Source of the DNA: a virus
Strand: one strand, 5' to 3'
IMG/VR virus record: IMGVR_UViG_3300035669_000001
Span: 1-64,000 of that record
Length of the DNA: 64,000 nt
The notes under the pieces are model-generated. The model made no database searches, was not told the origin of the DNA, and saw nothing but the letters and a program-made list of their open reading frames with translations. Position 1 is the first letter of the stretch. Every line of letters begins with the position of its first letter. A program made the translations under genes and the position numbers. This document shows positions 32,901 to 53,800 of the stretch, in pieces.

Positions 32901-33039
32901 AGGTGCGGGTATGTTGACCCGCAACCGTATGGCTACGAAGATCGGCGCAGCTCTCGGTGGAGGTGTCGGGACCGTCCACGGTGCCAATCGGTCGATCGCC
33001 AACTCACGTCGCAAGGGATACCTGAGGAGCGGTTTCTAG
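29950..33039 (+). CDS. Very basic modular head-associated protein (candidate polyprotein)
   Basis: 1029 aa, R/K/A/G/P-rich; about 10 [VI]xK[SAGKM] sites; HEHAH motif; RDERGRF; PDMADVHI. Confidence 0.75.
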   Translation: MPWERTGSGYKTAKGGFVRNPGQYETLRSKGMSKRRAAMISNSVGKSYIGGKFVRAVDLTAEQRKVLGAGKYILYRGRNKHVSRGLERFGPNNQWRQSRGASGNRGTHLNEYRAGWSATKNVVAAPGNMGGARRNKQAYRRLEQVNGETNTAAFTIRTGSKSTGKSHVFYNRKRMQEAESHKPGYLAAVAPHEHAHAAPKRSGYRLFQVIQDPATLGREEARADFIASGGKPVRGLKRTSFYAHNALRDRQASKYKYVKDVGGKQGEFGASYIAHTRMLHNKISKPKKVSKAFGGVKRVAGAFARKPTAEAATFVDNRVAQVAPGITRAAAPPKNATQSLVSDTLAHINRVKASPPAAVPFAPHKPKTIGSLGAEWHPKPQAAAASGALSFKGHKAPPLTKPAPAKAKPVQAPPPAAPRLSRVGAQRSRSGFQGFTRRPRVVPAAPSAPPRAAPAVTRPPSAQPVSTPTQAPRGNGRRNAGIAAAGAGAVGLTGAAVYSRRKKVDGVSKAFSLRGVAPRRMGVNVGQHAGVNTPRRAGGLSSMFQRGSAPKRAMQAGSREMGVAASPRRLMGPGAAPGGGINPRGTGRPASAVGRPGLAAAPSVAAGGPAAAAPKVGGIARPVGSGSRPAPKTGGMARPYAPVPKPPVTTPKLPGAAAARPYAPVPVAPRTSNRNRNLALGAGAVGAGGLGMAGGALGQRKVRKSFSPNQARDERGRFMPMVQMLQVNDFEQTEDNVEKKFDRTDKIIAGLSAVGLAGAGAAAYKGNKEAKRLGGTKGLTTKEKIFGVRGKVAQWAGTEKPKGWKPSDRVHKSLRVTGARRLPGYKPHPDDVEEAVALARKQFPGRKTTKKEVLEELQPSGGLGGVAGRGFGARSNRISKGSPDMADVHIEGVLRPVGKMRRARVEKGMVVVGKADEPRKPGQWNANQRAGAAGLVSTLAGGAIPLGVGIGAGSAARKGKRFKTGGNAFVRTGAEGGVGGAVGAGAGMLTRNRMATKIGAALGGGVGTVHGANRSIANSRRKGYLRSGF

Positions 33040-33042
33040 GCC

Positions 33043-35121
33043 ATGACCCAGCCCAAGGTCGTGATCCACGGGAAGTTCGAGGACGGAGACCTCCCCGCCC
33101 AGGGGACGCTGACGTTCTCCGACTTCGCCTTCTCCACCGACACGGTGGAGAACGTCATCCACGTCCCCCACACGGAGAAGGCCTACCTCGACCAGAACGG
33201 TGAGTTCTGGGTGGAGCTGCCCCTGAACGTGGGCATCAACTCCACCCCCACGCCCCGCCGGTACTCCGTGGACATCGCCGTCTCGGGGTTCGCCGACTCC
33301 TGGGAGTTCGTGCTCGACCCGACTTCCCTGCAGGTCGAGCTCTCCTCCCTGATGCCGGTCAACGCCCCGCCGGTGATCCCCTACCAGTACGTCTCCTCGC
33401 TGATGGGCATGACGGGCCCGATCACCTACTCCGACTTCATTGAGCGCGTCCCACAGCTGGCCCCGGACGCCGGCAAGAGCGCCTACGAGCTCTGGGTGGA
33501 CCAGGGCAACACCGGGTCGTTCTCCGACTTCCTGGACGACATCTCAGGCCCTCCTGGGATCATGGGGCCGCGCGGTGCCCAGGGAGACATAGGCACCGAG
33601 GGCCCACGGGGGCTGAGAGGCCCGGCTGGACCCCAGGGCAGGCCCTTCCACCTCGACGCCATCGTGATGACCGAGTCGGCTCTCAGTGGCGGTGGAGGGG
33701 TGCTCACCGACGACGAGCAGACCGTCCTGATGCCCAAGTGGAGCATCGTCGCCGTCTTGGAGAACCAGTCCTTCTACCACTTCGACGGGGTCGAGTGGCG
33801 CAACCTCGGCTCCTACAAGGGCGCGCAGGGGGAGCCGGGCAACACCCCGACCGCGGCCGACCTCGGGCTCGGGACCTTCGTGGGCCTCACCCCGGCCACG
33901 ATGCCCATCCCCGGCTCGGTGCAGATCGCCCTGAACACCCTGGCGGCCAACGTGGGCCAGGTGCAGAGTGTCAACGGCCAGGTCGGTGAGGTGGAGATCG
34001 GCGCGGACGACGTGGGTCTCGGCAACGTCGCCAACCTGGCTCCCTCCCAGATGCCCGTCTCGGCCGACACCCAGGCGGCCCTGAACGCCCTGAGCGTCCT
34101 GCTGGGGGGCAAGGAGCCCCTGCTGCCCTCGGGCGGCACGGTGACCACCTTCCTGCGCGGGGACAAGTCCTGGCGCACCCTGATCCCCGCTGACGTGGGT
34201 CTGGGGCAGGTGCGGAACTTCGCCTCGATGAACGTGCTGGGCTCGGTGAGCCTGGACGCCGTGACCTCCACCGGCACCTACCACCAGCCCTTTGACACGG
34301 TCGCCTCCACCGACCTGGGCTACCCGGTGAACAGGGCGGGCTTCCTGGTGGTGGTGGCCAACAACGACGGCACCAAGATGGTCGCCCAGAGCTACACCAC
34401 CTACGGCTACGCGGGGTCGGAGTCCCGGGTCTATCTGCGCGCGATCTACGCCACCAACTCCTGGGGCCCCTGGCGGCAGGTCTACACCTCATCGGGTGCT
34501 GACCCCTTCACGGCGCAGTCCTACCGGGGCACCTCGGGTGGAGGGGTGTCAGCCTCCGGTGTGGTGCATGCGCGGTCCTTCGTGGCCAGTGCGGGCATCT
34601 CGGCTTTTGACCTGGACTCCGCAGCAGGGGTGACGGTGTCCTACCCGCTGGCCCCGGTGGTCGGCACCCTGCCGGACGCCTTCCCACAGGGGTACTCGGT
34701 CTGGCGCCTGCAGGCCGGTGCAGCCGGCAGCCCCACCGGCTACCCGGTTCTCTCGGGCACACTGGAGAGCTACCGCAACACCTTCTACCCCAGGCAGCGC
34801 CTCACAGCAGTCGACGGCACGGTCTACACCAGGACCTTCTCGGGAACCTGGTCGCCCTGGAAGGTCAGCGACAACCTCCAGTTCCTGGCCGGTCAGGTGG
34901 CCATCCTGCCCTCTGCCATCGACGTCCCCACCTCGGTGGTGGTCAACCTTCCGGCTGGGAGGTTCAGCGTCCCGCCTGTTACCGTCGTCTCGGCCAACTC
35001 CTCGGTGCCCGACCGGATCCACGTCAGCACCCAGCTCGCCACGGTGGACTCCTTCACCGTCACCATGACCCGGTCGTCCGTGGCCAACACCTTCATCAAC
35101 TGGCTGGCCGTAGGAGTCTGA
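33043..35121 (+). CDS. Tail fibre with pyocin-knob-like domains
   Basis: SAYELW, collagen, VQSVNGQVG..DVGLGNV, two knob-like repeats ending WGPW/WSPW, C-terminal H-lectin-like INWLAVG. Confidence 0.8.
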   Translation: MTQPKVVIHGKFEDGDLPAQGTLTFSDFAFSTDTVENVIHVPHTEKAYLDQNGEFWVELPLNVGINSTPTPRRYSVDIAVSGFADSWEFVLDPTSLQVELSSLMPVNAPPVIPYQYVSSLMGMTGPITYSDFIERVPQLAPDAGKSAYELWVDQGNTGSFSDFLDDISGPPGIMGPRGAQGDIGTEGPRGLRGPAGPQGRPFHLDAIVMTESALSGGGGVLTDDEQTVLMPKWSIVAVLENQSFYHFDGVEWRNLGSYKGAQGEPGNTPTAADLGLGTFVGLTPATMPIPGSVQIALNTLAANVGQVQSVNGQVGEVEIGADDVGLGNVANLAPSQMPVSADTQAALNALSVLLGGKEPLLPSGGTVTTFLRGDKSWRTLIPADVGLGQVRNFASMNVLGSVSLDAVTSTGTYHQPFDTVASTDLGYPVNRAGFLVVVANNDGTKMVAQSYTTYGYAGSESRVYLRAIYATNSWGPWRQVYTSSGADPFTAQSYRGTSGGGVSASGVVHARSFVASAGISAFDLDSAAGVTVSYPLAPVVGTLPDAFPQGYSVWRLQAGAAGSPTGYPVLSGTLESYRNTFYPRQRLTAVDGTVYTRTFSGTWSPWKVSDNLQFLAGQVAILPSAIDVPTSVVVNLPAGRFSVPPVTVVSANSSVPDRIHVSTQLATVDSFTVTMTRSSVANTFINWLAVGV

Positions 35122-35122
35122 C

Positions 35123-35665
35123 ATGGGTCGTCTGGTCGAGAGACTGAGATGGCTTGCATCCAAGCCACTGCTGTTCGGGCACTGGATTGTGGAGAAGATC
35201 GACGACTCCAGGATCAAGGCGTGTCCGGTCACCCGGGCCCTGATCCGGCTCATCTCCTCGGCGACCTTCGTCTACGCGATGGCGATCATGGTCGGTGGTG
35301 AGAAGCGCTGGTCCCAGGTCACCTACTCGGTCCTCAACCAGTTTCCTGGTTCTCCGTACAGCTGGGCCTCGATCCTGATGACCACGACGGTGATGGTGAT
35401 GGCCGGGTCGCTGCTGGCCTCGCACGACCACTCCTGGGGCCAGTGGCTGAAAGACGCCGGGTTCTTCCTCGGGTGCCTGTGGTGGATCACCTTCGGGCTC
35501 TGCGTGGCCAGCGCGGTCACCCCCACCAACTCGGTGCCCTTCTCCACTGCGGTATTCCCGTTGCTGCCTATCGTCGTCTACGTCTGTCTGGGCATGGTCG
35601 ACGAGCGCAACTCCTTCGACGACGAGGAGATCTTCGCCAGGCCCTACCACTCACACCCCGCGTAG
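35123..35665 (+). CDS. Membrane protein (4 TM)
   Basis: Four hydrophobic segments. Confidence 0.75.
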   Translation: MGRLVERLRWLASKPLLFGHWIVEKIDDSRIKACPVTRALIRLISSATFVYAMAIMVGGEKRWSQVTYSVLNQFPGSPYSWASILMTTTVMVMAGSLLASHDHSWGQWLKDAGFFLGCLWWITFGLCVASAVTPTNSVPFSTAVFPLLPIVVYVCLGMVDERNSFDDEEIFARPYHSHPA

Positions 35666-35673
35666 GAGCCGCC

Positions 35674-36135
35674 ATGATCCAGAAACACTCCATCCCCTCG
35701 CCCAACCCTGTCGCGTTCGGGATGAGCGTTCTGCTGATGGTGGCGTTGGTACAGATAGCCAGGGGCCAGGGTGACGTGCCGGTCTCTCTCCAGGAGATGC
35801 CTACCACCGGGATCGTCGCGCTCTACGGGATGGCACTGGGCTGCCTGATGGTCATCGGGGGCAGCGCGTTCCAGGTCCCGTCGCGCTTCCTCTCGCTCCG
35901 CACCAGGATCAACGGCTTCTGGGTGGAGTTCTTCGGCAGTGTGCTGGTCGGCTTCGGTACGGTGGCCTACTGGCTGGCGATCTACCTGGTCAACCCGGTG
36001 CAGGGCACCCTTGCGGGGTTCTCCAGCGCCTGTCTCACACTCATGTTCTGTGGTCGGGGGATCCAGATCATCCGTCTCGTCCTCCGAGTGGGGAGGGAGG
36101 CGGATGCTCTCCGGGCGAAGGAGTCCCTCGAGTGA
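35674..36135 (+). CDS. Membrane protein (4 TM)
   Basis: ATG after AGGAG; four hydrophobic segments. Confidence 0.75.
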   Translation: MIQKHSIPSPNPVAFGMSVLLMVALVQIARGQGDVPVSLQEMPTTGIVALYGMALGCLMVIGGSAFQVPSRFLSLRTRINGFWVEFFGSVLVGFGTVAYWLAIYLVNPVQGTLAGFSSACLTLMFCGRGIQIIRLVLRVGREADALRAKESLE

Positions 36136-36539
36136 ACACGCAGCTGGTCTACAACGTGATCCTGGCGGTCGTCGGGACCACGTGGTTCGGCAGTGCCTTG
36201 ATGTTCTTCCTGACCCGGAGGCGCTTCCGCGCCGACGTCCGGAAGGTGGAGGCCACCATCACCACCGACGAGGCCAACACCGCACGGATCATCACCGAGA
36301 CCTCCTCCGGGCTGCTCAAGGACGTCAACGCCCAGTTGGCGGCCCAGGCCAACCGGATCGCCAGCCTGGAGCAGTCCCGGGTCGCCACCATCGCCTTCAT
36401 GCGCCGGCAGGGGATGGCCCTGCGGCAGATGCGGGACATCGTTCTCGTGCTCAACAAGGAGCTCGAGAAGGTCGACGGGAAGTCCCATCCGGTGCCCGAC
36501 ATCGACGAGATCCTCAACACCGACATCACTAGCCTGTGA
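36132..36539 (+). CDS. Single-TM coiled-coil protein (holin/lysis accessory-like)
   Basis: N-terminal TM, RRRFR, coiled coil, HPVP end. Confidence 0.7.
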   Translation: MNTQLVYNVILAVVGTTWFGSALMFFLTRRRFRADVRKVEATITTDEANTARIITETSSGLLKDVNAQLAAQANRIASLEQSRVATIAFMRRQGMALRQMRDIVLVLNKELEKVDGKSHPVPDIDEILNTDITSL

Positions 36540-36554
36540 TGGGAGAATCCTGGT

Positions 36555-39338
36555 ATGGCGTTCAACGAACACTGCGCTCAGCGCGTCTACGACATCGTCT
36601 CCAAGATGGACGACGACGAGGCCCAGATGTTCGGCCTCCTGGTGGCCCACGACGTGTGGTCGCGTGACGTCCGGGCCAACGAGCGGTACCTCCGCCGGCT
36701 GAAGGACTCCTACGATGCCGAGGTCACGGACACGGTTGCCAAGGCCCTCCTCGAGCACCTGGACGAGGGCGGCGACCCTGAGGCTGCTGTGGCGGTCGCA
36801 GCGGCTGTGGCAGTCGCGAAGGACGACGACGACTGGTGGAAGTTCCAGGAGCGCGACAAGCAGGGTCGCTTCGGCCGGATGACCGGTGCCCAGTACCGGG
36901 CCAACCTGAAGGCGATCAAGGCCAGTGCCAAGCTGACCCAGGCTGAGCGCAAGGCGCAGCTGAAGGACGCCAGGTCCGGACGGGCCAACTACCTCAGCGG
37001 CTCGGGGCTCTACGTCGACGTCAAGGGAGGCGGTCAGGGAGTCGTCCGAGGTACCCAGAGGTTCGAGCAGGACTGGAACCGCCCACCGGACGAGGAGTCC
37101 AACGCCACCACCACCTTCAACCGGCTGAAGACCGGCGGCCAGACGGTGCAGGCCATCGGCGCCGCCACGGGCAGCCAGAAGCTAGCCATCGCGGGTGCGG
37201 TGGGCAACTACGCCGGTCAGTTCGGCCCGGAGGCCGAGAAGGTCGTCGGGCCCTCCATCCGGCGGACCGCCTACCGCTACCGGGGGACAGAGCGTCGTCC
37301 CGACGCTGCCTACGTGCAGATCGCCCAGGCCAACCTCAACGAGGTCAAGCGTGAGGGGCAGCCGGTCACTGCGGAGCAGAAAGCCTTCGCGGCCGAGACC
37401 GCGGCGATCCGGTACTTCCTCGGTGACGACCCGACGGCTGGCAAGCGGGGCGGTGGCTCACGCATCCCCAGTGCGAAGCTCTCCGGGCTGCACCGCGCCT
37501 CGGGCCGGATCACCCCCTCCGAGGGCATCATGATCGACGCCAACGGCAACATCGCCCACCAGGCGGTCGGCTACGGCGAGGACCACTACCTGCCCTTCAA
37601 CCTCAAGAACCTCTCCGCGCTCAAGGGCGGCTCCTACATCCGGACGCGCGAGAGCGGCGGTCTGACCACCGAGGACATCTACACCGGTCTGGTGGCCGGT
37701 GCGCGCTCGATGACGGTGGTGAGCAACTCCGGGGTCTTCACAGTGGACTACGCCGACGACCTGCGCGGAGGCAGGCGCTACAACGACAAGGCCCGGCAGA
37801 TGGTCAGCCGCTACGGCCAGACCCTGGACGCGATCCAGTCCGAGAAGGTGGCCAACCCGGAGCGCGGCCTGTCCTCGCGGGAGAGGGCGAAGATCCAGGT
37901 CGAGACCGAGCAGAAGATCAACGAGGACCCGATCCTGCGGTCCTTCCCCGACGACCAGAAGAAGTCCTGGGTCAAGGAGGCGATCCAGCGCGCCGAGTCC
38001 ACCACCCAGCTGTCCGAGGACGAGATCGCCGAGATCGACCGGAAGTCCAAGGAGCAGGGCAAGACCAAGTCCGACCAGGACATCTTGTTCCGTCAGCTGT
38101 ACGACGAGAAGATCGACGCGGTCAGCCGCCGGCACTACCGGTTGGACGGTGAGGGTTACGCCACCTCGATGGAGGCGCTGCGCGAGCAGTTCCCCTACTA
38201 CATCTCCAACATCAGCTACCGCACGGTCAAGAGCAACGACTCGCTGGCTCCCGACAGGTTCAACCGGGCCACCGACAAGGGCTACGTCAAGCCGCGGTTC
38301 AACCGGCCCGAGGGAGCCCAGTCGGGCTACTACGACGACACCATCACCGGCAGGGGCAAGACCAGCGCCGACCGGACGGACTACCAGAACTGGCGGGTCC
38401 GGGCCAAGCGCGGGGGAGATGTTGCGGCTGTTGCGGATGTTGCGGCAACCACGGGTGCCCCCAACAGCATGAAGGCCACCCAGGACAAGTTCGCGGCCGA
38501 GGCCAAGGAGAAGGCCGGCGACCCGTTGATGAACAACGCCATCATCTCCGACGCCGACTCCCTCAAGGCCACCCACGAGGCCTCCCGCGAGGCCAAGGCC
38601 GGTGGCATCGGGATGCAGTACGAGGGTGTGCACGAGTGGTTCAACGCCGACGACTCCGAGCGGCACGCCATCATGGCCGACCCGGCCCGCAGGGCGAAGC
38701 TCAAGGCCGACATCACCAAGGTGAAGCGGGACTACGCCAAGGAGTTCGGTTCCTCCGCGCCGCAGAACATCGAGTTTGCCGAGAAGAAGGCGAAGACCGC
38801 CATGATGAGCGACGAGGTCCTCGCGGCCGAGAAGGCCCCGGACACCCCGCTGCGGATCACCGACGAGCAGTTCGAGCAGGCGGCTCAGACCGACCACATC
38901 CGCAACCTCACCCAGCAGGAGGACCACGACCTGCAGGCGATCAGCCAGGACCTGCGTACCCAGCGCGCCCTCACGGCGAAGGCGGGCAACGACAAGGAGA
39001 CCACGTCGCTCACCCAGCAGATCACCGCGCTGGAGTACGCCCGCGCCCTCAAGGCCCGCACCACCGAGGTGCCGACCGACGTCTACGCCGAGATCGCCCA
39101 GCGCACCAGCCCGACCAAGGGCACGCTCACCCCGGTGCCGAAGGTCTCGTCGAGGGCCACGCTCACGTCCACCCAGGCCACTGAGCAGGTCCGCCGGCTG
39201 CACAACCAGCACCGGCTCGGGCTGATCGACGCCAACGAGTTCGAGCGGAGCGTCAGAGAGGTCATCGAGGACTCCGACATGGACGATAACGAGAAGCAGG
39301 TTGAGTACCGCCGTGCTACCGGGAACATCATGCGGTGA
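36555..39338 (+). CDS. Large head-associated protein with degenerate JAB-like domain
   Basis: VSKM/VAKA/VAKD sites, RDKQGRF, E-GIMIDANG...LKGGSYIRTR..GGLTTEDI. Confidence 0.7.
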   Translation: MAFNEHCAQRVYDIVSKMDDDEAQMFGLLVAHDVWSRDVRANERYLRRLKDSYDAEVTDTVAKALLEHLDEGGDPEAAVAVAAAVAVAKDDDDWWKFQERDKQGRFGRMTGAQYRANLKAIKASAKLTQAERKAQLKDARSGRANYLSGSGLYVDVKGGGQGVVRGTQRFEQDWNRPPDEESNATTTFNRLKTGGQTVQAIGAATGSQKLAIAGAVGNYAGQFGPEAEKVVGPSIRRTAYRYRGTERRPDAAYVQIAQANLNEVKREGQPVTAEQKAFAAETAAIRYFLGDDPTAGKRGGGSRIPSAKLSGLHRASGRITPSEGIMIDANGNIAHQAVGYGEDHYLPFNLKNLSALKGGSYIRTRESGGLTTEDIYTGLVAGARSMTVVSNSGVFTVDYADDLRGGRRYNDKARQMVSRYGQTLDAIQSEKVANPERGLSSRERAKIQVETEQKINEDPILRSFPDDQKKSWVKEAIQRAESTTQLSEDEIAEIDRKSKEQGKTKSDQDILFRQLYDEKIDAVSRRHYRLDGEGYATSMEALREQFPYYISNISYRTVKSNDSLAPDRFNRATDKGYVKPRFNRPEGAQSGYYDDTITGRGKTSADRTDYQNWRVRAKRGGDVAAVADVAATTGAPNSMKATQDKFAAEAKEKAGDPLMNNAIISDADSLKATHEASREAKAGGIGMQYEGVHEWFNADDSERHAIMADPARRAKLKADITKVKRDYAKEFGSSAPQNIEFAEKKAKTAMMSDEVLAAEKAPDTPLRITDEQFEQAAQTDHIRNLTQQEDHDLQAISQDLRTQRALTAKAGNDKETTSLTQQITALEYARALKARTTEVPTDVYAEIAQRTSPTKGTLTPVPKVSSRATLTSTQATEQVRRLHNQHRLGLIDANEFERSVREVIEDSDMDDNEKQVEYRRATGNIMR

Positions 39339-41506
39339 GCGTCCCCGCCTTTGACCAGGAGCCACTGACGCCCCAGGAGGCCTACCAGGTCGACTACGTC
39401 ATCCGAGGGGCACAGGGGGGCTCCACGCTGGCTGTGGCGGCCGCACTGGGCGGGGCCTTCCTGGTGTACCGGGCGTACATGCGGAGACGCCTGCGGGAGC
39501 GCATGGGCTCGCTGGAGGGCACCACGCCCGAGGAGGTGATGCGCGAGACCAACCAGGTGTTCTCCACCTTCATGCCCACCTGGACGGCGATGGCCGCACC
39601 TGCTCTCTTGCAGGGCTACCTGTCCGGGGTGGCCGAGACGGAGTTCGGGCTGGACGAGGCGTTCCTGTCCGAGCTGGCCGATAACTACGCCTACTCCCTC
39701 GGGATGCACATCAACCAGGTCTCCGGCGACGCTCTCGTGCGCGGGTACGCGGCCCAGGTGAACCGGAAGGTCCCGGCCAAGGTCGCCCTGGGCAACGTGA
39801 TCGACGCGGTCGGGGTGACCAACTCCCACATGCGGACTCTGAACGTGATGCTCTCGGGCAAGGAGGACGCCAAGCTCAGCGAGACCCTGATCCCCTCGGT
39901 CAAGAAGGCCAGGGCACAGCGCCAGGTGATGGCCGCCCTCAACCAGCGCGCCGAGGTGATCGGCGACTCGGAGTCCTGGAACGCCAAGCAGCAGGGCAAG
40001 CAGATCGCCTGGTTGTACGCCCAGCGTCAGGGGTTCATCCCCTCCACCGCTACCCGGGAGTGGATCACCGCCGACGACGAGCGGGTCTGCCCGTCCTGCG
40101 GCCCGCTGCACAAGGTGGAGCTGCCGGTCGCCGAGCAGTTCGACATCCCGAACGTCGGCAAGTTCTGGTCCCCGCCCGTGCACCCGAGGTGCCGCTGCGA
40201 CGTGCGTCTCAAGGTCGGCCTGGGGCAGATCATCGCCAACAACGTGGTCTTCGGGCAGTTCGGCCGGCAGTGGCTCAAGCCCGACGACGTCGAGGAGGTC
40301 GGAAAGTCCGACAACCCCCACGACAACGACTGGGACACCCAGCCGAGACAGAAGACCGGCAGGTTCGGCGCGCGTCCTGAGGTTCGTTTCAAGGAGGCTG
40401 ACGTCGACCTCGATGCGGCCATCGCCCAGGCCACCCAGGCGGCGCAGATCGAGGACGCGGTACCCAAGGGTCCGATCCTCGGGCGAACGGTGCTGGGAAA
40501 GCCAGGGGTGATAGGCGAGACGACACTGGGCAAGCCTCCGGTGCTCGGCCAGGTCGTCCTCGGCAAGCCTCCTGTCCTCGGCGGGTCCAAGCTCGAGTCG
40601 CAGGGTCTGCAGGCCCAGCGGATGAAGTCTCACGCCCTGCAGGGCCGCAAGCTGGACAAGAGCAAGCTGGACCATGCCAGGCGGATGGCCCGGGCCGAGA
40701 TGGACGGCCGGATCATGGCACTGCCCGGGGACATCTCGGGCACGGTGGTGGACGACGAGGTCAAGGCACCCGAACCCGACTACTCCGACCTGGTGCCCAC
40801 TCCGGAACCCATGTTCGCCGTTGCCGATCCGCGTTGGGTTATTCGTGGACCAAACACCGACTCGCGTTCAATCAACGCTTCCAACGGTATGTACCGGCTG
40901 GACGGAGCCGAGGTGATAGGCGGGGTGGACAAGCTCCAGGCCAAGATCGAGGAGCTCGAGGCCGAAGCTGACGACGAGTACCTGGAGTACCTCTTTGACA
41001 GTAATGAGGCGAGCTACTTCGACAACGAAACCGGTTGGGAGAGTCCCGTCCCCGAGCACGTCTACGCCGCAGCTATGGAGTGGGTTCGGGCCCAGGAACA
41101 GACAAACATGGCGGTGGCGGACTTCACGGTCGAGCTTGATGCGTACGGGCCGCTGTGGACCAAGGACGGCACGCCGGTGGAGGGAGGGTACAACCATCCT
41201 GACTACGAGGCCCTCTACGAGAACGGGGATATTGAGTTTGACCTGGTTGACAGCCAGTACGTGCAGATCTCTGACATCGCGGACAAACTGAGTCTTTGGG
41301 AGCACGTCAGCGATACTCAGCCCCGGATCATCCAGCTGGACAAGGTCAGGGGCAACGACGTCGACTACGACCCTGACGGTGCTCCTTATGCCCAGGTGAG
41401 CGATAGCTACAAGATGGACGGGATGTCCACGGTCACCATCAACGGGAGGCACTATGTGACCGCCCGACTCGAACCGGCCTGGCTGGACGAAGGCGGGAGA
41501 ATGTAG
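39335..41506 (+). CDS. MuF-like (gpF/SPP1 gp7) minor head protein with C-terminal extension
   Basis: EWITADDERVCPSCGPLH...PPVHPRCRC. Confidence 0.88.
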   Translation: MSVPAFDQEPLTPQEAYQVDYVIRGAQGGSTLAVAAALGGAFLVYRAYMRRRLRERMGSLEGTTPEEVMRETNQVFSTFMPTWTAMAAPALLQGYLSGVAETEFGLDEAFLSELADNYAYSLGMHINQVSGDALVRGYAAQVNRKVPAKVALGNVIDAVGVTNSHMRTLNVMLSGKEDAKLSETLIPSVKKARAQRQVMAALNQRAEVIGDSESWNAKQQGKQIAWLYAQRQGFIPSTATREWITADDERVCPSCGPLHKVELPVAEQFDIPNVGKFWSPPVHPRCRCDVRLKVGLGQIIANNVVFGQFGRQWLKPDDVEEVGKSDNPHDNDWDTQPRQKTGRFGARPEVRFKEADVDLDAAIAQATQAAQIEDAVPKGPILGRTVLGKPGVIGETTLGKPPVLGQVVLGKPPVLGGSKLESQGLQAQRMKSHALQGRKLDKSKLDHARRMARAEMDGRIMALPGDISGTVVDDEVKAPEPDYSDLVPTPEPMFAVADPRWVIRGPNTDSRSINASNGMYRLDGAEVIGGVDKLQAKIEELEAEADDEYLEYLFDSNEASYFDNETGWESPVPEHVYAAAMEWVRAQEQTNMAVADFTVELDAYGPLWTKDGTPVEGGYNHPDYEALYENGDIEFDLVDSQYVQISDIADKLSLWEHVSDTQPRIIQLDKVRGNDVDYDPDGAPYAQVSDSYKMDGMSTVTINGRHYVTARLEPAWLDEGGRM

Positions 41507-41508
41507 CC

Positions 41509-42360
41509 ATGGACGTACTGGAGGCTCTGCGCGCGCACGGTGAGGCTGGGGCGGCTGTCGTGGACCTGCTCTACGGCGAGGGTGCGGAGGAGGTTGTCAA
41601 GGCTCTCAGTGAGGACCGCAAGCGGAAGATCGCCACCGCCTCCAACGTGGTCGGGATCGGCGCTGGGCTGGCTGCCATCCCCGGTGCCACCCGCGACTTC
41701 CGGAACGCCGCGAAGACTGCCAGGGGTGCCAGTGACAAACCGGTCGGCGTCCTGAAGCCGGTGGGCAAGATCCGGGGCAACATCCGCGGTGGTCTCAAGG
41801 CCACCAAGAACTTCCTGGGCAAGCCGAAGACCGCGCTGGCACTGGCCGGCGGCGGTCTGGCCCTGCAGGCGGGGAACGTCGGCGGGGACTTCGTGACCAA
41901 CCAGGTCCTCCGCGCCGACCAGAAGAAGTCGGGCGTCTCCAAGGGGCTGACCGACATCGAGTGGACCGGCGAGTTCTCCAAGATGGACACCGACAAGCGC
42001 CAGGTGTTCGGGTGGGCCTCGGTCACCGCGGTCGACGGCGTCCCGGTGACCGACCTCCAGGAGGACGAGATCGACCTCGAGGAGATCGAGAAGGCCGCCT
42101 ACTCCTACGTGGCCAAGTCCCGGGTCGGCGGCAACATGCACAAGAAGACCATCGACGGCTCCCCGGTGCACGTCTCCGACATGATCGAGTCCTTCGTGGT
42201 CACCCCGGAGAAGAAGCAGACGCTGCACCTGGGCAACGACACCCCGGAAGGGTGGTGGGTCGGCTTCCAGGTCAACGACGACGAGACCTGGGACGCGGCC
42301 AAGAACGGCGAGCTGGTGGGCTTCTCGATCCACGGAACGGGAAAGAGGCGTGACGGCTGA
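41509..42360 (+). CDS. XkdF-like prohead serine protease with N-terminal extension
   Basis: KRQVFGWASV...DLQEDEI...EKAAY...NMH...IESF...PEGWWVG...TWDAAKNGELVGFSIHG. Confidence 0.9.
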   Translation: MDVLEALRAHGEAGAAVVDLLYGEGAEEVVKALSEDRKRKIATASNVVGIGAGLAAIPGATRDFRNAAKTARGASDKPVGVLKPVGKIRGNIRGGLKATKNFLGKPKTALALAGGGLALQAGNVGGDFVTNQVLRADQKKSGVSKGLTDIEWTGEFSKMDTDKRQVFGWASVTAVDGVPVTDLQEDEIDLEEIEKAAYSYVAKSRVGGNMHKKTIDGSPVHVSDMIESFVVTPEKKQTLHLGNDTPEGWWVGFQVNDDETWDAAKNGELVGFSIHGTGKRRDG

Positions 42361-43589
42361 TGCCCATGGTGAAGCTGGTGTTCGTCCCGGAGACGACGAA
42401 CAAGCCGACCAGGCAGTCCCACAACATCGTGGCGCTGCCCAAGATCGAGCCTCTGCAGGGCAAGGGGAAGCCCCAGTTCGGGCGCAACGGCAAGCCGGTC
42501 AGCAACGTCTCCGATGCGCTGTTCGGGCGCGGGGGAGGCGTCCACACCGACGTGATCCGCAAGGCCCTGAGCAGGGAGCAGAAGGTGGGCGTGGGAGCCG
42601 CCGGCGTGGTAGGTGCCGGGCTGGCAGCAGGTTCGGTCGGACGAGCGGTCAGATACGGCGGCCAGGCGCGCAACGCCTTCCGGGTGGCCCAGGGTTTTAG
42701 TCATGGCCCCGCCCACCAGGCCGGGGCCACCCTCAAGCAGTACGGCGCACATCGCAGGAAGATGGCTCTCCGCAACGTGGGTGCGGCGACAGTGGCGGGC
42801 GGGCTCCTGGCTGGCGGTACGGCCGCCACGATGTCCAGTGCCAACGCAGCGAACCAGCGCCGCACCGGTGTGGCCAAGATGAGTGACGCGGAGCTTCGCC
42901 ACCGCAAGCGCGTCCAGGCCGGGATCAGCATCGGCACCTCCACCCTCGGTCTCTCCGCGCTGGGGTCAAAGGCCGGGGCCGGTGTGCTCCGCAAGCTCAA
43001 CAAGGCCCCGGGTGCGGCCCATCGGCTGGACAAGGCAACCACCAACCTGCTCACCAGCGGTGCAGGACTGGGTGGGGTCGGTGGGTTCAACTTCGCCTCG
43101 GTGCAGCGCCAGGAGGCCAGGAAGCGGACGCCGGTGGTAAAGGCTTACGACCCCGAGCGCAACCGGGAACGCAGGGCCAGGCAGGAGGCCAAGGTGGCAG
43201 GAGTCGTCGGAGGTGCAGCGTCCGGCGGTGCGCTAGCGGCTGGAGGTCTCGCAGCACGACGTGGGTTTCAACGCCGGGACGAGACCACCCGGATAGGTAG
43301 TCCGGTGGAGCTCGAACAGGAGGTTCTCCCCGGTGGCGGCAAGACCCGACTGGACCCGAGGGGGCGAGTTCACCACGGGCCTGCTCGGAAGTTCCGGACG
43401 GCGAACTTCGGGGAGAAGATGTCCTCGGCGACCAAGGTCAAAGGGCTCAAGGCCAGCCAGGTGAGGGCGGGCAAGGTCGGTGTCGGACTGGCCGCGCTGG
43501 GCGTCGGCGGGCTGGTTGCGTCGGACCGGATCGCCTCCTACTCCCGGGGGAAGGGGCGGAAGTACTCACCCCGGTTCAAGCGGGACTGA
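42360..43589 (+). CDS. Basic Gly-rich modular protein (candidate polyprotein)
   Basis: Three cassettes starting at IRK|A, VAK|M, VVK|A, each with two Gly/Ala hydrophobic segments. Confidence 0.75.
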   Translation: MPMVKLVFVPETTNKPTRQSHNIVALPKIEPLQGKGKPQFGRNGKPVSNVSDALFGRGGGVHTDVIRKALSREQKVGVGAAGVVGAGLAAGSVGRAVRYGGQARNAFRVAQGFSHGPAHQAGATLKQYGAHRRKMALRNVGAATVAGGLLAGGTAATMSSANAANQRRTGVAKMSDAELRHRKRVQAGISIGTSTLGLSALGSKAGAGVLRKLNKAPGAAHRLDKATTNLLTSGAGLGGVGGFNFASVQRQEARKRTPVVKAYDPERNRERRARQEAKVAGVVGGAASGGALAAGGLAARRGFQRRDETTRIGSPVELEQEVLPGGGKTRLDPRGRVHHGPARKFRTANFGEKMSSATKVKGLKASQVRAGKVGVGLAALGVGGLVASDRIASYSRGKGRKYSPRFKRD

Positions 43590-43627
43590 ACGGGTTGCAG
43601 GCTAAGACAGAATTGTGGGTGAGGAAC

Positions 43628-44806
43628 ATGCCAAAGCTCAGTGATCTGAACATCGACGAGGTCAGCCTCGTGCGCAAGGGCGCCAACCAACATGCCCGGG
43701 TGGCAATCGCGAAGTCAGCAGGAGGAGAAGTGGACGAGGAGTACTTCGACCAGGAAGGAAACGCGGTCGACGTCGAGGAGCTCGAGCATGGCGACATCGT
43801 CTTCGACTCTGACGGTGAGGCCTACCAGTACGACGAGCCTGGTGACGATGACGACGAGGTCGAGAAGGCCCTGTACGTCGGTGGCCGCGAGGTCACCAGC
43901 CGGGTCGGACGTGCCGCTGGCAAGGCGTACATCGGAGCCGGCCGCAAGGCCAAGTCCGCCAACAAGTTCCGGATCCAGACAGGTGCGATTGCCGGGCAGG
44001 CAGCCCGCAGGGGCGCCAAGCGTGTATCCAGCGCTGCCGGTACGGGTGCCGGGTTCGTCGCCGGCAACGCCAAGCGTGGTGCAGGGGCAGTGGCGGGAGC
44101 CGCACGTAGCACCGGCACGGCAGCCGGGAACGCGGGCAACGCCATGGGCGGGGCGATCCGCGGGGCCGCGGCGCAGACCGAGGGCTTCCTGCGCACCGAG
44201 AACAACGCCTTCAACACCCGCGGCCGGATCGGCGCCCTCGGTGCCGGTGGTGTGCTCGCCGGTGCCGGTGGCGGCTACGCGGCAGGCAGCAACGGCCGGG
44301 TCCGCAAGAGCGCGTCCGACGACCTCCGGGAGGAGCTCTCCAAGGCACTCACCGACGACGACCGGGACGAGGTGATCGCGAAGGCCTTCGGGTACGTCGA
44401 ACAGGCCGAGCAGGTCGCCCAGGAGGCCTGGGAGATCGCCGAGGAGGAGCGGGAGAACCGCCGGGCTGCGGAGTTCTACGAGGTGGCCAAGTCCTACGAC
44501 ATGGTCCCGGTGGATACCGAGGACCTCGCGATCGCCATGATGCACATGGCCGACCTGCTGCCCGAGGAGGACGTGCAGGTCATCGCCAAGGCCCTGGGCT
44601 TTGCGGCCGACGTGGCCGACGAGCTCTACGAGGAGCAGGGCAACGTGGGCGGTGGCGACAACTCCGACGTGATGGAGCAGCTGCAGACGTTCGCGCGCAA
44701 CCGGGTCGCCAAGTCCGGTGAGGGCTCAGCCGAGCAGTACCTGGTCGATGCCCTCAACCATGACCCAGCGGTGTACGACCAGTACCTCGCGGACAACAGC
44801 CGCTGA
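43628..44806 (+). CDS. Scaffolding protein carrying the protease EVSLV..AN strand and a basic insert
   Basis: MPKLSDLNIDEVSLVRKGAN; eight [VIL]xK[SA] sites; C-terminal PAVYDQY; lies before decoration and capsid genes. Confidence 0.8.
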   Translation: MPKLSDLNIDEVSLVRKGANQHARVAIAKSAGGEVDEEYFDQEGNAVDVEELEHGDIVFDSDGEAYQYDEPGDDDDEVEKALYVGGREVTSRVGRAAGKAYIGAGRKAKSANKFRIQTGAIAGQAARRGAKRVSSAAGTGAGFVAGNAKRGAGAVAGAARSTGTAAGNAGNAMGGAIRGAAAQTEGFLRTENNAFNTRGRIGALGAGGVLAGAGGGYAAGSNGRVRKSASDDLREELSKALTDDDRDEVIAKAFGYVEQAEQVAQEAWEIAEEERENRRAAEFYEVAKSYDMVPVDTEDLAIAMMHMADLLPEEDVQVIAKALGFAADVADELYEEQGNVGGGDNSDVMEQLQTFARNRVAKSGEGSAEQYLVDALNHDPAVYDQYLADNSR

Positions 44807-44829: not shown

Positions 44830-45249
44830 ATGGCTTACGACGAAGCGTGGCGGGCGGTCACTTTCAACGCTGACTCCTCGCTCGCCGGGTACACGGGTGT
44901 TCCTGGCGTGCCAGGATCAGTTAGCCCGAACTACGGCAAGGCGCTCTACAGGTTTGTGAAGGTCGTGGGCAAGCGCCTGGTGGGTCGAACCACCGGTGTT
45001 GCCGACCGCAACAAGACCGTGGGCATCTGTCAGAGCAAACCACAGGTGACCGGTGAGGCCGCTACCATCGCGATCCGGGGCGAGTCCCTGGTGTTCGCGG
45101 GCGGTGTCATCGCGGCCGGTGACATGGTCACCTCAGACGCCACTGGACGAGCTGTGACCACTGCGGTGGTGGCGGACCATCTTGGCCTCGCTGTCGAAGA
45201 CGCATCCGGAGCCGACGTGCTCACCACCGTGCTGCTTCGGTGCAACTGA
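44830..45249 (+). CDS. Capsid decoration/cement protein
   Basis: YRFVK...GICQSKP..GEAA...AGGVIAAGDMVTSDATGRA. Confidence 0.8.
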   Translation: MAYDEAWRAVTFNADSSLAGYTGVPGVPGSVSPNYGKALYRFVKVVGKRLVGRTTGVADRNKTVGICQSKPQVTGEAATIAIRGESLVFAGGVIAAGDMVTSDATGRAVTTAVVADHLGLAVEDASGADVLTTVLLRCN

Positions 45250-50478: not shown

Positions 50479-50882
50479 GGAGCGACCCGGAGTTCAACAT
50501 GGAGATGGCGTGGTGCACCGACAAGGGCATCCCGCACTCGGTGCTGTTGGACTGGGACTCCGAAGACCGGGCCAAGCTCCACGCCTACCTGCTGGAGGAG
50601 TCGCTGCGCTGTGTGATGTGCGGCACCCAGCCCTGGGAGTGGGACCCGGAGCAGGGGGGCTCGCGGAGGGCCTACATCCCGGTCGAGCTGTTCTGTCCCG
50701 GCTGTTATGCCAAGCAGACGACTGCTGACGGCAACGACGCCCCGAAGGGCACCACGATCCAACTGGTTCCCCACTCCGAGACAATAGTGGAGGAGCAGAG
50801 ACAGCGGTACCTCAAGGAGCAACGACGGAAGGCCGAGGGTGGACGAGGACTACACAGTAGGCCTGAGAGCCGACACCCGTAG
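50457..50882 (+). CDS. Tail assembly chaperone frameshift extension (gpT)
   Basis: W..EDRAK...CVMCG...CPGC; in -1 frame of gpG. Confidence 0.8.
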   Translation, partial: PFWREKLRSDPEFNMEMAWCTDKGIPHSVLLDWDSEDRAKLHAYLLEESLRCVMCGTQPWEWDPEQGGSRRAYIPVELFCPGCYAKQTTADGNDAPKGTTIQLVPHSETIVEEQRQRYLKEQRRKAEGGRGLHSRPESRHP

Positions 50883-53800
50883 CTACGAGTCGTCCATCAG
50901 TGGTGCTGCCAGCATCACCAACACTCTCACCGCCTCTCTCGTACGGCTCGGTCAGACCCTCGGGTCGGTAGCCCAGCGGGCGGACCGCCGGCTCACCTTG
51001 ATCTCGGCGGCCGAGGCTGCCACCATCGTCGGCGTCACGGTGGCCGCGGCCCGGCTGGACCAGCAGATGTCCCAGCTGCAGGCCCGCCAGGTGATGTTGG
51101 ACCGGGGCACCAACAACTACCTCAAGACGGTCAACCAGCTGCGCACCGGGCTCGGGCTGACCTCGCAGGAGAGCATCGGCCTGGTCACCCAGCTGAACCG
51201 GCTCAACGTGCCCTTCAGCCAGCAGAAGACCTCGATCGAGAGCTACGTCCGGCTGGCCGCTGTCACCGGCGACTCCGTACAGGGGCTGGCCCAGGCCAAC
51301 ACCCAGTTCATGCGGACGATGGGCAACACCCAGCCGGTGGAGCGCTACTCCTCCATGGTGGCCAACCTGTCCGAGAAGTACGGCGCCGGTGCCCAGTCCA
51401 CCCTGGACTTCGCAAACCAGATCGCTCCGCTGTCGAAGGTGATGGGCATGAACGCCCAGGAGATCACCGGGATCTCCGCTGCCTTCTCCAAGGCCGGGCA
51501 GGACGGCTCCGCAGCGGGCAACGTCTACACCAAGATCCTCTCCGACGTGAACCGAGCCATCCAGTACGGCTCCCCGGAGGTGCAGGTCTACTCCGACATG
51601 CTCGGCAAGAGCGTGGAGCAGTTCAAGGCCATGCCCAAGGCCGAGGTCGTCACGGCCATCTTCGAGTCCCTCAACAAGGAGGGCCCGCAGGCCATCAAGA
51701 CCCTGGAGCGCCTCGGCCTGGAGGGGGTGCGCTCCCAGCGGGCCATCACCGCAGTGGTCCAGCAGGGCGGCCTGCGCCAGGGCATCGCCGACGCCAACGC
51801 TGGCTGGAACGACCCGGCCCGCTTCCGGGGTGCCTCCGACCAGGCCCTGAAGGGCATGAACGACCAGCTGGCCCGGGCGGGGGAGACCACCAAGGCTTTC
51901 GCGCAGGGAGTTGGTCAGACCTTCCTGCCGGCCGCCAACTCACTGGCCAAGGGCTTCAACGTCCTGCTCTCCCCGCTGCGGGTGCTGACCGACCTGTTCA
52001 ACTCCGACTCAGGGCTGGCGGGGGCGGTCAAGACACTGCTCGCCTTCGGGGCTGGAGCGGCTGTTCTGGCCCCTCTGATCCCACGGCTGCTGATGGGGCT
52101 GGCCGGAGCCTCCCTGCTGCCCACACTGGCCCGCGGGAGCCTGGGACAGGGCTTCCTGCTCGGCCGCAACCCCAACATGGCCCTGGGTGCCAACCAGCGG
52201 TCGTTCATGGAGGGCGGGGGCACCGCTGGCACCCGCACGCTGTTCCGCGGCGGCATGGCCCTGGGCGGGATGCTCAACGTCGGTGGGCGGCGGGGTGACC
52301 TCTCCCAGCACCGGTTCGTCGACCCGGTCACCGGGCGGGTGCGCGAGCACAGGTCGCTGCCCGGCTACGCGGAGTCGATGGTCCGCCTGGGGCTGATGAC
52401 CGAGGAGGACGCCGCCCGCAGCCTCAACCGCGAGGGCAGGGCACCGTACACCGGCGAGCTGACCGGGAGGGCGGCCAGCCTGGCAGCAGCGGGGCTGCCG
52501 GTCCCGGCGGGCGTGGCCAGGGACATCGAGAACGCCCGGCCGCGGGAGCGGCTCGGCACCCGCACGATCAACCGCGGAATCGGGTTCGCCGGCGACATGT
52601 TCCGGGCCCAGCTGAACCCGTGGACCAAGAGCTACCTGGACAAGTCGATGGAGGGCGGGCCGGACGCCGTCACCCAGGAGTCCCGCTGGCGCGACACCAA
52701 GCCGATCGCGAGCGTGCGGAGGTTCTTCAGCCAGGACGCCCTGGACGAGCAGGTCAAGGCGACCAAGGAGCACGCGGGCAACATCCGGTCCCAGACCAAG
52801 ATGCTCACCGAGATGACGGCCGAGCAGCGCCGGGTCTACCGGGAGTCCCACTCCATCGTGCGGAACTTCGGCAAAGAGCTGCTGATGACCGCTGGGACGG
52901 GCGCCAGGGCCACCGCAGGGCTCGGGTACGGCGCGGCCCGGCTGGGTGCCACCGGGCTGATGAAGGCCGGTGGAGGGCTGCTGAACCTCGCCGGTGGCCC
53001 CGCCGGGGTAGCCCTCGCCGCCGGGCTGGGTGCCTACACCTTGAACAAGGAGAACCGGGCCAGTTGGGAGGAGGGCATCAGGGGACGCGAGGGCGACCAG
53101 TCCGCCGGTGCCGACTACCGCAACGCCCTGGGGCTCGGGGAGAAGTCGCTCAAGAGCTTCGCTGAAGTGGTCAACCAGACCAACGCGGCGCTGAAGACCT
53201 CGGTCTCCTCGGTCGGTGAGGCCATCACGATCTCTGCCGAGGACATCGCCAGGGCGTCCGGGCGGGTCAACCTGATCGTGGACAACAACATCAAGACCAT
53301 GTCCGCGAACCAGGCGAAGATCTACGCCGGGGCCATCCTGCCCACCGCGGACCCGCGCGAGGCCCAGGCCCTCAAGCTCGACCTGATCGCCAGGTACGGC
53401 GGTGCCGAAGCCAAGAACATCCTGTCGGCCGGGATGGAGGGCGGCACCCAGAGCAACGCCTTCGGGATGATCGCCAACCAGCAACAGCAGTCCTGGGTGC
53501 CGAAGTGGCTCGGGACCTGGCAGGGGACGCAGACCCAGGCCACCAAGGACGCCGTGCAGATGGTGGCGGACACCAACAAGACCCAGATCGCGGCAGTGGA
53601 GCAACGCTCGGGTGCCTCGGGGGTGGGACAGCTCCAGCAGTCGAAGATGAACGAGTTCTTCGCAGCGGTGGACGACCGGGGACGCGCCGGCGGCAACGCC
53701 CGCGGCTACAGCCTCGGGGCGATGGGCTCCCAGACGTCCAAGGGCATGTACCAGAGCATGGCCCAGACCCTGGGGCTGGACGTCAACGACAACGCCTCCA

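Follow-up and report, generated by a model that had tools for sequence, protein, structure and literature searches.

In the window analyzed here, a 64,000-nucleotide stretch representing the first 64 kb of IMG/VR virus record IMGVR_UViG_3300035669_000001 (77.9 kb in total; 97% complete by CheckV), three adjacent genes carry basic cassettes rich in glycine and alanine and bordered by the short motif phi-x-K. The genes lie between a MuF-like gene and the cement and capsid genes:

41509-42360, + strand: XkdF-type protease, 283 amino acids (aa), PF14550
42360-43589, + strand: basic protein of 409 aa, no family match
43595-44806, + strand: acidic scaffold-like protein, open reading frame (ORF) of 403 aa

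Judged from the sequence and taken as a whole, we slightly favor the explanation that these are the procapsid core genes of an uncultured siphophage of 78 kb, the cassettes being basic internal head-core modules that would be processed by the protease. Spurious ORFs were ruled out by the high third-position G + C content and by conserved homologs. For comparison, a set of 80 related IMG/VR contigs with capsid proteins 59-75% identical was used.

The protease is composed of a leader, the basic cassette, and the catalytic domain (a slash after the lysine marks the junction in all motifs given below):

41509..41601, + strand: leader, residues 1-31, net charge -5, with an LLYG motif and ending in E-V-V-K31/A
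41602..41943, + strand: basic cassette, residues 32-145, 114 aa, net charge +15, isoelectric point (pI) 11.4, from VVK31/A to VSK145/G
41944..42357, + strand: XkdF-type catalytic domain, residues 146-283, PF14550, net charge -12

The PF14550 profile matched residues 155-280 with 69.2 bits (cut-off, 24; E value, 4.2e-19; profile positions 4-124 of 126), a score above the curated cut-off that places the protein in the Peptidase_S78_2/XkdF-type family. Because the profile covers these residues only, the cassette is N-terminal to the catalytic domain and not inside it. A preliminary description of this DNA had located it inside the protease, correctly between VVK31/A and VSK145/G, and the coordinates and compositions that it gave for this cassette (approximately 114 aa, rich in K and R) and for that of the scaffold (approximately 147 aa, rich in R, G, and A) were confirmed.

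A total of 665 protease homologs were found, many covering 99% of the query at 40-70% identity, and alignments of 26 and 93 sequences were analyzed. Residues L21 and G23 of the leader were nearly invariant in both alignments, and H211, S273, and H275 were invariant in the 93 sequences, making them candidate catalytic residues by conservation. The protease gene stops approximately 10 residues past the conserved Ser. Within the cassette, Gly/Ala segment 1 (residues 41-59) is followed by a variable basic loop, Gly/Ala segment 2 (residues 108-134), and V-S-K145/G. Residues G49, A52, G53, L119, G126, L134, and K145 were invariant or at least 90% conserved, Q120, N123, and D127 were invariant or nearly so, and free variation in the extension was confined to the loop that links the two segments. 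AlphaFold2 modeled the catalytic domain with a predicted local distance difference test score (pLDDT) of approximately 80-90, and the extension as a long helical hairpin with a pLDDT of 45-70. Residues 151-276 of the protease domain matched T4 gp21 (PDB 5jbl; Z, 5.9; 102 residues aligned; root-mean-square deviation, 4.0). Foldseek analysis of the full protease model returned no match at E ≤0.001, and VIA-align analysis of the extension returned only generic helical hairpins with Z up to 7.1, a comparison that is uninformative for helices.

The alignments indicate that the protease cassette of the window's clade (more than 90 homologs) is an old conserved part and no recent insertion. At greater depth, the proteases of contigs L046, L036, and L072 (pI 5.1-5.5) kept the leader and catalytic domain and lack the first Gly/Ala segment; at the place of segment 2, they have at most a much shorter uncharged Ala-rich stretch, and L046 has none. 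Elsewhere among the relatives, the extension measures 103-347 aa with up to two detected Gly/Ala segments, so the region appears to be modular over long evolutionary times. An indel in the protease, as expected by the preliminary description, is thus seen at this depth and not within the window's own clade. In the three cassette-less contigs, the scaffolds (359, 308, and 362 aa in L046, L036, and L072, respectively) all carry a basic insert, a pattern that hints at compensation between carriers; it is not strict, as the window and L012 have both a protease cassette and a scaffold insert.

The gene for the 409-aa protein (pI 11.75; third-codon-position G + C content, 0.82) starts with a one-base overlap of the protease stop codon (TGATG, 42358-42362), which suggests translational coupling of the two genes. 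The protein had no match to any Pfam or PHROG family, and a word-based search returned three relatives only. It was divided into three units:

42360..42878, + strand: unit 1, residues 1-173, with leader-like ALFG...VIRK68/A and ending in G-V-A-K173/M; Gly/Ala segments at residues 76-94 and 140-158
42879..43142, + strand: unit 2, residues 174-261, MSDAELRHRKR module ending in P-V-V-K261/A; Gly/Ala segments at residues 185-203 and 230-248
43143..43586, + strand: unit 3, residues 262-409, YDPERNRERR module with a basic C-terminal tail; Gly/Ala segments at residues 279-299 and 370-388

Unit 1 and the N-terminal extension of the protease gave a Smith-Waterman score of 94 against 39.9 ± 7.2 for shuffled sequences (z, 7.5; 0 of 300 shuffles). 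The alignment runs along the whole extension, from DLLYGEG...VVKA versus DALFGRG...VIRKA through the closing V-x-K, and indicates that unit 1 is a paralog of the protease N-extension; unit 1 also aligns within A4, the profile alignment of the extension. All other cassette pairs had z ≤2 in the same kind of test, and the hypothesis that the five cassettes form a single homologous repeat family was rejected, as the shuffle tests gave no support. The three cassettes in tandem reported by the preliminary description for this protein can therefore be retained as a shared architecture and composition, and significant similarity is limited to that between unit 1 and the protease extension.

The modules of units 2 and 3 recur in relatives. 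The unit 2 module (MSD-x-E-[LI]-R-x-R-K-K) opens separate proteins in L062, L065, and L073, and the recurrent start pattern of the unit 3 module is [YF]-D-[PSA]-E-x-x-R-x-x-R. The homolog P0122 has the same layout as the 409-aa protein, and P0122-P0124 show the same junctions as the window with extra pieces between PVAK/AF and KVAK/AF. Because the same junctions are found in relatives, VAK173/M and VVK261/A are real module borders. The basic proteins of relatives (for example, L062:5896-6663, L065:7937-8710, and L041; P0160-P0261) end in SAFG[VI]DH or [KR][RH]G[IV]S-x-RN-x-PW; the C-terminus of the 409-aa protein, ...SYSRGKGRKYSPRFKRD, holds neither of these motifs complete.

The phi-x-K motif followed by A, S, G, or M is probably the cleavage site of the prohead protease, judged by where it is conserved. 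The protease leader is followed by [VI]-x-K in 87 of 87 homologs (next residue A in 56, S and L in 10 each, and M in 7), and phi-x-K is found 18-28 residues upstream of the FGW motif in 92 of 92 homologs, with S as the next residue in 47. Of 25 module starts of the unit 3 type, 22 have phi-x-K ahead of them (background, 0.12; binomial p, 7e-18, which is no true probability for related sequences), and nine of 11 internal modules of the unit 2 type have the motif within 12 residues before their start (background, 0.12). As the sequences are related, these counts reflect conservation at the junctions rather than independent events. The motif is considered meaningful because it is conserved at homolog junctions, not because it is frequent; its raw count was enriched in the scaffold only (10 versus 3.6 expected; 0 of 500 shuffles reached 10). 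The claim that the cassettes are bordered by VxK motifs was thus borne out at these junctions, and the N-termini of stand-alone cassette proteins coincide with them as well.

Between the protease and the scaffold, the related contigs encode 0-3 basic proteins of 140-1145 aa. The 52 unique proteins of this interval have a median pI of 10.9 and a median density of 0.71 Gly/Ala segments per 100 aa, compared with a median of 0 segments in the MuF, capsid, and scaffold proteins. When a profile of the protease extension (A4) was searched against 1.84 billion representative proteins at E ≤0.001, 229 representatives matched; among the best 137 of these 229, 67 had a protease domain and 70 did not. Forty-two full-length proteins without the protease domain were basic (pI 10.1-11.7) and carried the cassette at the N-terminus. 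A phi-x-K motif was located in the first 16 aa of 20 of these 42 proteins (background, 0.22; p, 1.6e-4), approximately fourteen of which open with a clear leader, for example, MTALSEISK/K. Most of the remaining stand-alone proteins have their N-terminus in the basic stretch that leads into the first Gly/Ala segment, the position of K31/A32 in the protease of the window. The conserved ending G-x-S-x-R-N-x-P-W was present in 36 of the 42, and the conserved C-terminal tails of the basic proteins may be a targeting or docking signal. The modules appear to have been shuffled among contexts, namely, in front of an XkdF-type protease, in 0-3 separate genes, and in the scaffold linker (approximately a fifth of the lineages). 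The idea that the cassettes are passengers on other proteins agrees with the sharing of the cassette by stand-alone proteins; it agrees less with the protease cassette, which is old and conserved in its own clade.

The product of 43595-44806 was provisionally assigned as the scaffold by its position, acidity (pI 4.6), and predicted helicity. As in the class of phage scaffolding proteins, it is encoded directly upstream of the decoration and capsid genes, is acidic and helical, and lacks an enzymatic domain. Its real start is probably the ATG at 43628 (MPKLSDL..., 392 aa), which has GAGGA 4 nt upstream and is where the homologs start, and not the TTG at 43595. Homologous ORFs were found in the related loci (n = 74), and the protein was divided as follows:

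43628..43714, + strand: N-terminal motif LSDLNIDEVSLVRKGANQHARVAIAK40/S, a strand motif
43715..43867, + strand: acidic stretch, residues 41-91, net charge -21, ending in D-E-V-E-K91/A
43868..44308, + strand: basic insert, residues 92-238, 147 aa, net charge +20, pI 12.0, ending in R-V-R-K238/S
44309..44803, + strand: conserved, acidic helical C-terminal domain, residues 239-403, net charge -28

The insert consists of 23% Gly and 25% Ala (48% Gly + Ala) and has one clear Gly/Ala segment at residues 212-230. The AlphaFold2 model, based on 28 homologs, had a pLDDT below 50 for residues 85-233 and above 90 for the helical C-terminal domain. Residues 50-80 (43742-43834) form a small beta unit (pLDDT, 85-89) in which G55, G66, and G74 are invariant.

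The scaffold insert is a true indel at one fixed site. A total of 23 homologs were aligned, and 45 unique sequences were measured between the anchors DE[IV]S[LTV]V and [LF]SK[AS]. The linker was 88-107 aa long in 35 of the 45 and 134-232 aa long in the other 10, with 221 aa in the window; an insert is missing from the nearest relatives, L001-L004, whose capsid proteins are 74-75% identical to that of the window. Wherever a scaffold carries an insert, the added residues begin directly past the conserved phi-[G/x]-K-[S/A] that comes after the acidic run. The insert closes with a Gly/Ala-rich stretch and x-x-K-[S/N], approximately ten residues ahead of a conserved helix, D-x-L-R-E-E-L-S-K-A. In many scaffolds that lack the insert, this place holds two phi-x-K sites within a few residues of each other, as in L004 with GVGK/SAFTAQKQGVAK/S. 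The absence of the insert in 35 of 45 homologs and its start directly after the motif are what the preliminary description had led us to look for. The inserts are barely alike (z 0.6-4.1 for the window insert versus the others), and an origin by tandem duplication was rejected, as no DNA-level repeats were found. Neither the protease nor the scaffold sequence retrieved anything useful from the PDB.

Regions of this kind could also be fast-evolving, low-complexity, disordered linkers at permissive sites without a specific function, with phi-x-K as an ordinary feature of helices and linkers. The highly variable lengths of the loop and of the scaffold inserts, the low similarity among the inserts, the pLDDT below 50, and the fact that most scaffolds function insert-free agree with this possibility. 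Nevertheless, it is very unlikely given the invariant or near-invariant residues of the Gly/Ala segments across 93 proteases, the recurrence of the architecture in 52 unique proteins, the junction motif in 87 of 87 and 92 of 92 homologs, and the C-terminal motifs kept by 36 of 42 stand-alone proteins; nor do any DNA-level repeats point to slippage.

The N-terminal part of the scaffold resembles parts of head protease families. Residues D21, E22, S24, V26, A30, N31, and K40 are invariant in 28 scaffolds, and the motif matches phrog_3270 at positions 104-139 and phrog_3017 at positions 3-32, both annotated as head maturation protease. The window protease matches phrog_3017 at positions 62-154, downstream of the scaffold-matching stretch 3-32. 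The strand motif DEVSLV..GAN..A is otherwise found in the head maturation protease families phrog_3270, phrog_3017, and phrog_3244. The scaffold N-terminus may tether to, dock on, or complete the XkdF protease. Complex prediction with protease residues 146-283 and scaffold residues 1-60 gave a score of 0.45 against 0.00 for the best control, a weak result that was not used as evidence. Of 80 solved complexes, 58 reached that mark, as did 2 of 110 mismatched pairs, and scores of 0.60 or less included just 7 of the 80 solved complexes and both passing mismatches. Contact agreement among the runs was at least 71%, and the pLDDT of the partner was approximately 44.

The reading to which we lend a little more belief than doubt is that the cassettes are protease-processed basic modules of the internal head core, similar to T4 internal proteins in function and unrelated to them in sequence. 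The core of this lineage would carry strongly basic modules of approximately 90-150 aa, most of them with two uncharged Gly/Ala-rich segments that probably form a helical hairpin and are split by a hypervariable basic loop. After shell assembly, the prohead protease would cut the phi-x-K junctions and release basic peptides of approximately 9-16 kDa. The acidic scaffold pieces would then exit, whereas the basic peptides would remain on the DNA entering the head and would serve, like those of T4, as internal head proteins. The acidic scaffold pieces have charges of -21 and -28 and the cassettes of +11 to +20, and this complementarity between acidic linker and basic module would explain their co-assembly. 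Guaranteed stoichiometric packaging and DNA-condensing or membrane-inserting roles, as put forward in the preliminary description, are conjectural.

The cassette may instead be a device for entry, in which role it would bind the acidic scaffold, recruit the protease and core proteins, and then be digested and expelled with no role in the virion. This explanation is as simple as one in which the cassettes are cargo. The protease needs a route into the procapsid, and the cassette is conserved on most of the proteases of the lineage, yet those of L046, L036, and L072 lack the Gly-zipper cassette and keep the leader, which indicates that the cassette is not needed for protease function everywhere. 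The linker is strongly acidic in all 45 anchor-bearing scaffold homologs (net -16 to -30 in the 34 whose linker has the usual short length of 88-107 aa), and the window insert brings the net charge of its linker to exactly 0. The non-conserved phi-x-K sites in the variable loops could permit further digestion; basic peptides of 9-16 kDa, however, would bind the incoming DNA instead of diffusing out, and a tag for recruitment would not seem to need strings of as many as nine Gly/Ala segments, found in proteins of up to 1145 aa. We consider this role unlikely.

The Gly/Ala segments were also analyzed for membrane propensity. Uncharged 19-mers were located at protease residues 41-59 and 108-126, in the 409-aa protein from residues 76, 140, 185, 230, 279, and 370, and in the scaffold from residue 212. 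The stretches quoted in the preliminary description were thus all present, two in the protease extension, six in the 409-aa protein (two per unit), and one clear stretch in the scaffold insert. Their mean Kyte-Doolittle hydropathy was 1.0-1.6, and a rough Hessa-scale sum of the apparent insertion free energy was +4 to +7 kcal/mol. By this rough hydrophobicity estimate, the segments are marginally membrane-like and fall below classical transmembrane helices, which does not sustain the earlier expectation of membrane-inserting peptides. The Gly-rich segments of the phage's own tape measure protein have a similar hydrophobicity. Six cassette pieces showed no match to the Pfam glycine-zipper families Gly-zipper_Omp, Gly-zipper_YMGG, and Rick_17kDa_Anti at E values up to 10, and the weak Pfam matches obtained were to unrelated families (PT-VENN, E value 0.05; DMAC1, E value 0.06). 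The hits in a protein-language-model atlas were limited to weak clusters of viral "hypothetical" proteins (scores, 0.83-0.85) and to structure matches of a generic helical-hairpin type. The cassettes are thus not covered by any family of Pfam, PHROG, or the PDB.

With these properties, the released peptides could be membrane-active ejection proteins whose paired segments insert into the host membrane as glycine-zipper hairpins and contribute to forming or lengthening the DNA channel or cause depolarization. Each unit has two uncharged segments of approximately 19 aa that are rich in small-xxx-small motifs and have basic flanks, their hydrophobicity is like that of the tape measure segments, and thin helical hairpins could conceivably traverse the tail tube. 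We regard this function as quite unlikely because the hydropathy and insertion energy are marginal, segment 2 has conserved polar residues (Q120, N123, D127, and NRVL), and the glycine-zipper families gave no match even at E values up to 10. In addition, the channel candidate of a siphophage is usually the tape measure protein, which here is 2040 aa long and has two lytic domains. It is likewise unlikely, though a little less so, that the cassettes are mobile cargo: basic glycine-zipper hairpins that spread by landing between existing protease sites of essential head-assembly proteins (at the N-terminus of the protease, in the scaffold linker, or in polyprotein genes), are packaged at fixed stoichiometry, are released in the head, and, after ejection, act on the host envelope or the DNA, where they could form a channel or a coat protecting the DNA if the host is, for instance, Gram-positive.

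Several observations weigh against the interpretation of the cassettes as one set of protease-processed core modules. The grouping into one cassette family rests partly on architecture, because, apart from the pair formed by unit 1 and the protease extension, no two cassettes are significantly similar, and the structure models of the cassettes are of low confidence (pLDDT 45-70 for the protease extension and below 50 for the scaffold insert). The raw count of phi-x-K is not enriched in the protease and the 409-aa protein, and the junction statistics overstate independence because the homologs are related. The motif is also found within conserved helices of the protease domain and of the scaffold C-terminal domain, where it may be structural. 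Furthermore, DNA and protein searches of a cultured-phage collection with the DNA of the region and with the 409-aa protein found nothing.

When the protease was searched against the cultured-phage collection, four records matched in the catalytic domain only. No cultured phage is close; identity of the capsid protein reaches 43% at most, with Pseudomonas KPP23/RSP and Arthrobacter phages. By this protein, the nearest cultured phages are Pseudomonas KPP23, Arthrobacter Kovu, and Microbacterium ValentiniPuff (approximately 42% identity), and the arrangement of protease, basic protein, and scaffold is absent from them. All head genes of the window are on the + strand, with a G + C content of approximately 66%. 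Besides the three core genes, the following features were identified:

27953-29950, + strand: portal, phrog_113
portal-MuF interval, + strand: several large proteins without family
39335-41506, + strand: MuF-like protein, PF04233; phrog_3517 "head morphogenesis," E value 4.5e-10
44830-45249, + strand: cement (decoration) protein, PF09956
45263-46258, + strand: major capsid protein, phrog_1005, E value 1.6e-82

The match of the MuF-like protein to PF04233 (E value, 4e-6; 28 bits) is slightly under the Pfam cut-off of 29.6. The content between the portal and the MuF-like gene (29950-39338) is unusual for a head module, as it includes family-less proteins of 1029 and 927 aa and a 692-aa protein with tail-fiber-like PHROG matches. 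The window also encodes a major tail protein of 159 aa and a tape measure protein of 2040 aa that has peptidase and transglycosylase domains, and these two proteins indicate that the phage is a siphovirus. The tape measure protein (50839-56961) has an M23-type peptidase region at approximately residues 1620-1760 and a transglycosylase region at approximately residues 1830-1985, and several of its hydrophobic Gly/Ala segments resemble the ones seen in the cassettes.

Good knowledge of internal head proteins and of how they are delivered is confined to a few models, namely, T4, P22, T7, and jumbo phages. If the interpretation of the cassettes as protease-processed core modules is true, they would provide a compact, sequence-defined rule for peptide loading into a siphophage capsid, in which phi-x-K closes a short leader or a junction, and the protease and scaffold would double as carriers. 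They would also form a narrow new family of basic peptides, with charge neutralization, DNA protection, and membrane activity as candidate roles. The cleavage rule and the indel hot spot of the scaffold could serve for loading foreign peptides into capsids.

The nearest functional parallel is T4. With T4, gp21 cuts after Glu in L/I-x-E motifs, whereas the candidate cut described here follows Lys. In T4, the protease and an acidic core protein co-assemble inside the shell, and the scaffold is digested; the internal proteins are present in hundreds of copies in the core, trimmed by gp21, retained in the head, and injected with the DNA (PMC9958956). As a parallel to T4 IPI, IPII, and IPIII with their capsid-targeting sequence, the proteins of this lineage are basic, have short leaders ending in a putative cleavage motif, and are encoded next to the protease gene. 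The 409-aa protein and the cassettes had no PHROG or Pfam match and hence no sequence relation to IPI, IPII, or IPIII, so the proposed likeness is one of function only, and packaging and injection are putative here. T4 is a myovirus and the present phage a siphovirus, and for T4 there is no description of modules that are fused to the protease or lie within the scaffold, as they do here.

The head protease of HK97 cuts between K103 and S104 of the capsid protein (PMC10275583). The protease of the window is of the same broad fold class, as seen from the structural match to T4 gp21, and the K/S cut of HK97 resembles the commonest junction, phi-x-K followed by S or A. It differs in belonging to family PF14550 and not to the HK97-type S78, and its putative substrates are separate core proteins and a scaffold, in contrast to the capsid-fused scaffold domain of HK97. 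For SPN3US and phiKZ, many head-internal proteins are reported that the prohead protease cuts at a short motif before DNA packaging (PMC5694885; PMC10052503). Both phages are jumbo myophages whose ejection proteins number in the dozens and are large and folded, whereas the 78-kb siphophage described here has small, basic, low-complexity modules without homology to them. Among siphophages of Gram-positive hosts, capsid proteins of the 80alpha gp44/SPP1 gp7 class are reported to be associated with DNA and to enter the cell with the genome (PMC7290940). They are MuF-type or other folded proteins, and here the MuF-like gene (39335-41506) is separate from the cassettes. In the literature searched, the precedents of T4, SPN3US, and 80alpha were found and no description of the cassette arrangement. 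Compared with the known protease-processed internal head proteins, the features that would be new are the peptide family, the candidate cut after Lys, the occurrence in a siphovirus, and the fusion to the protease and, in some lineages, the embedding in the scaffold.

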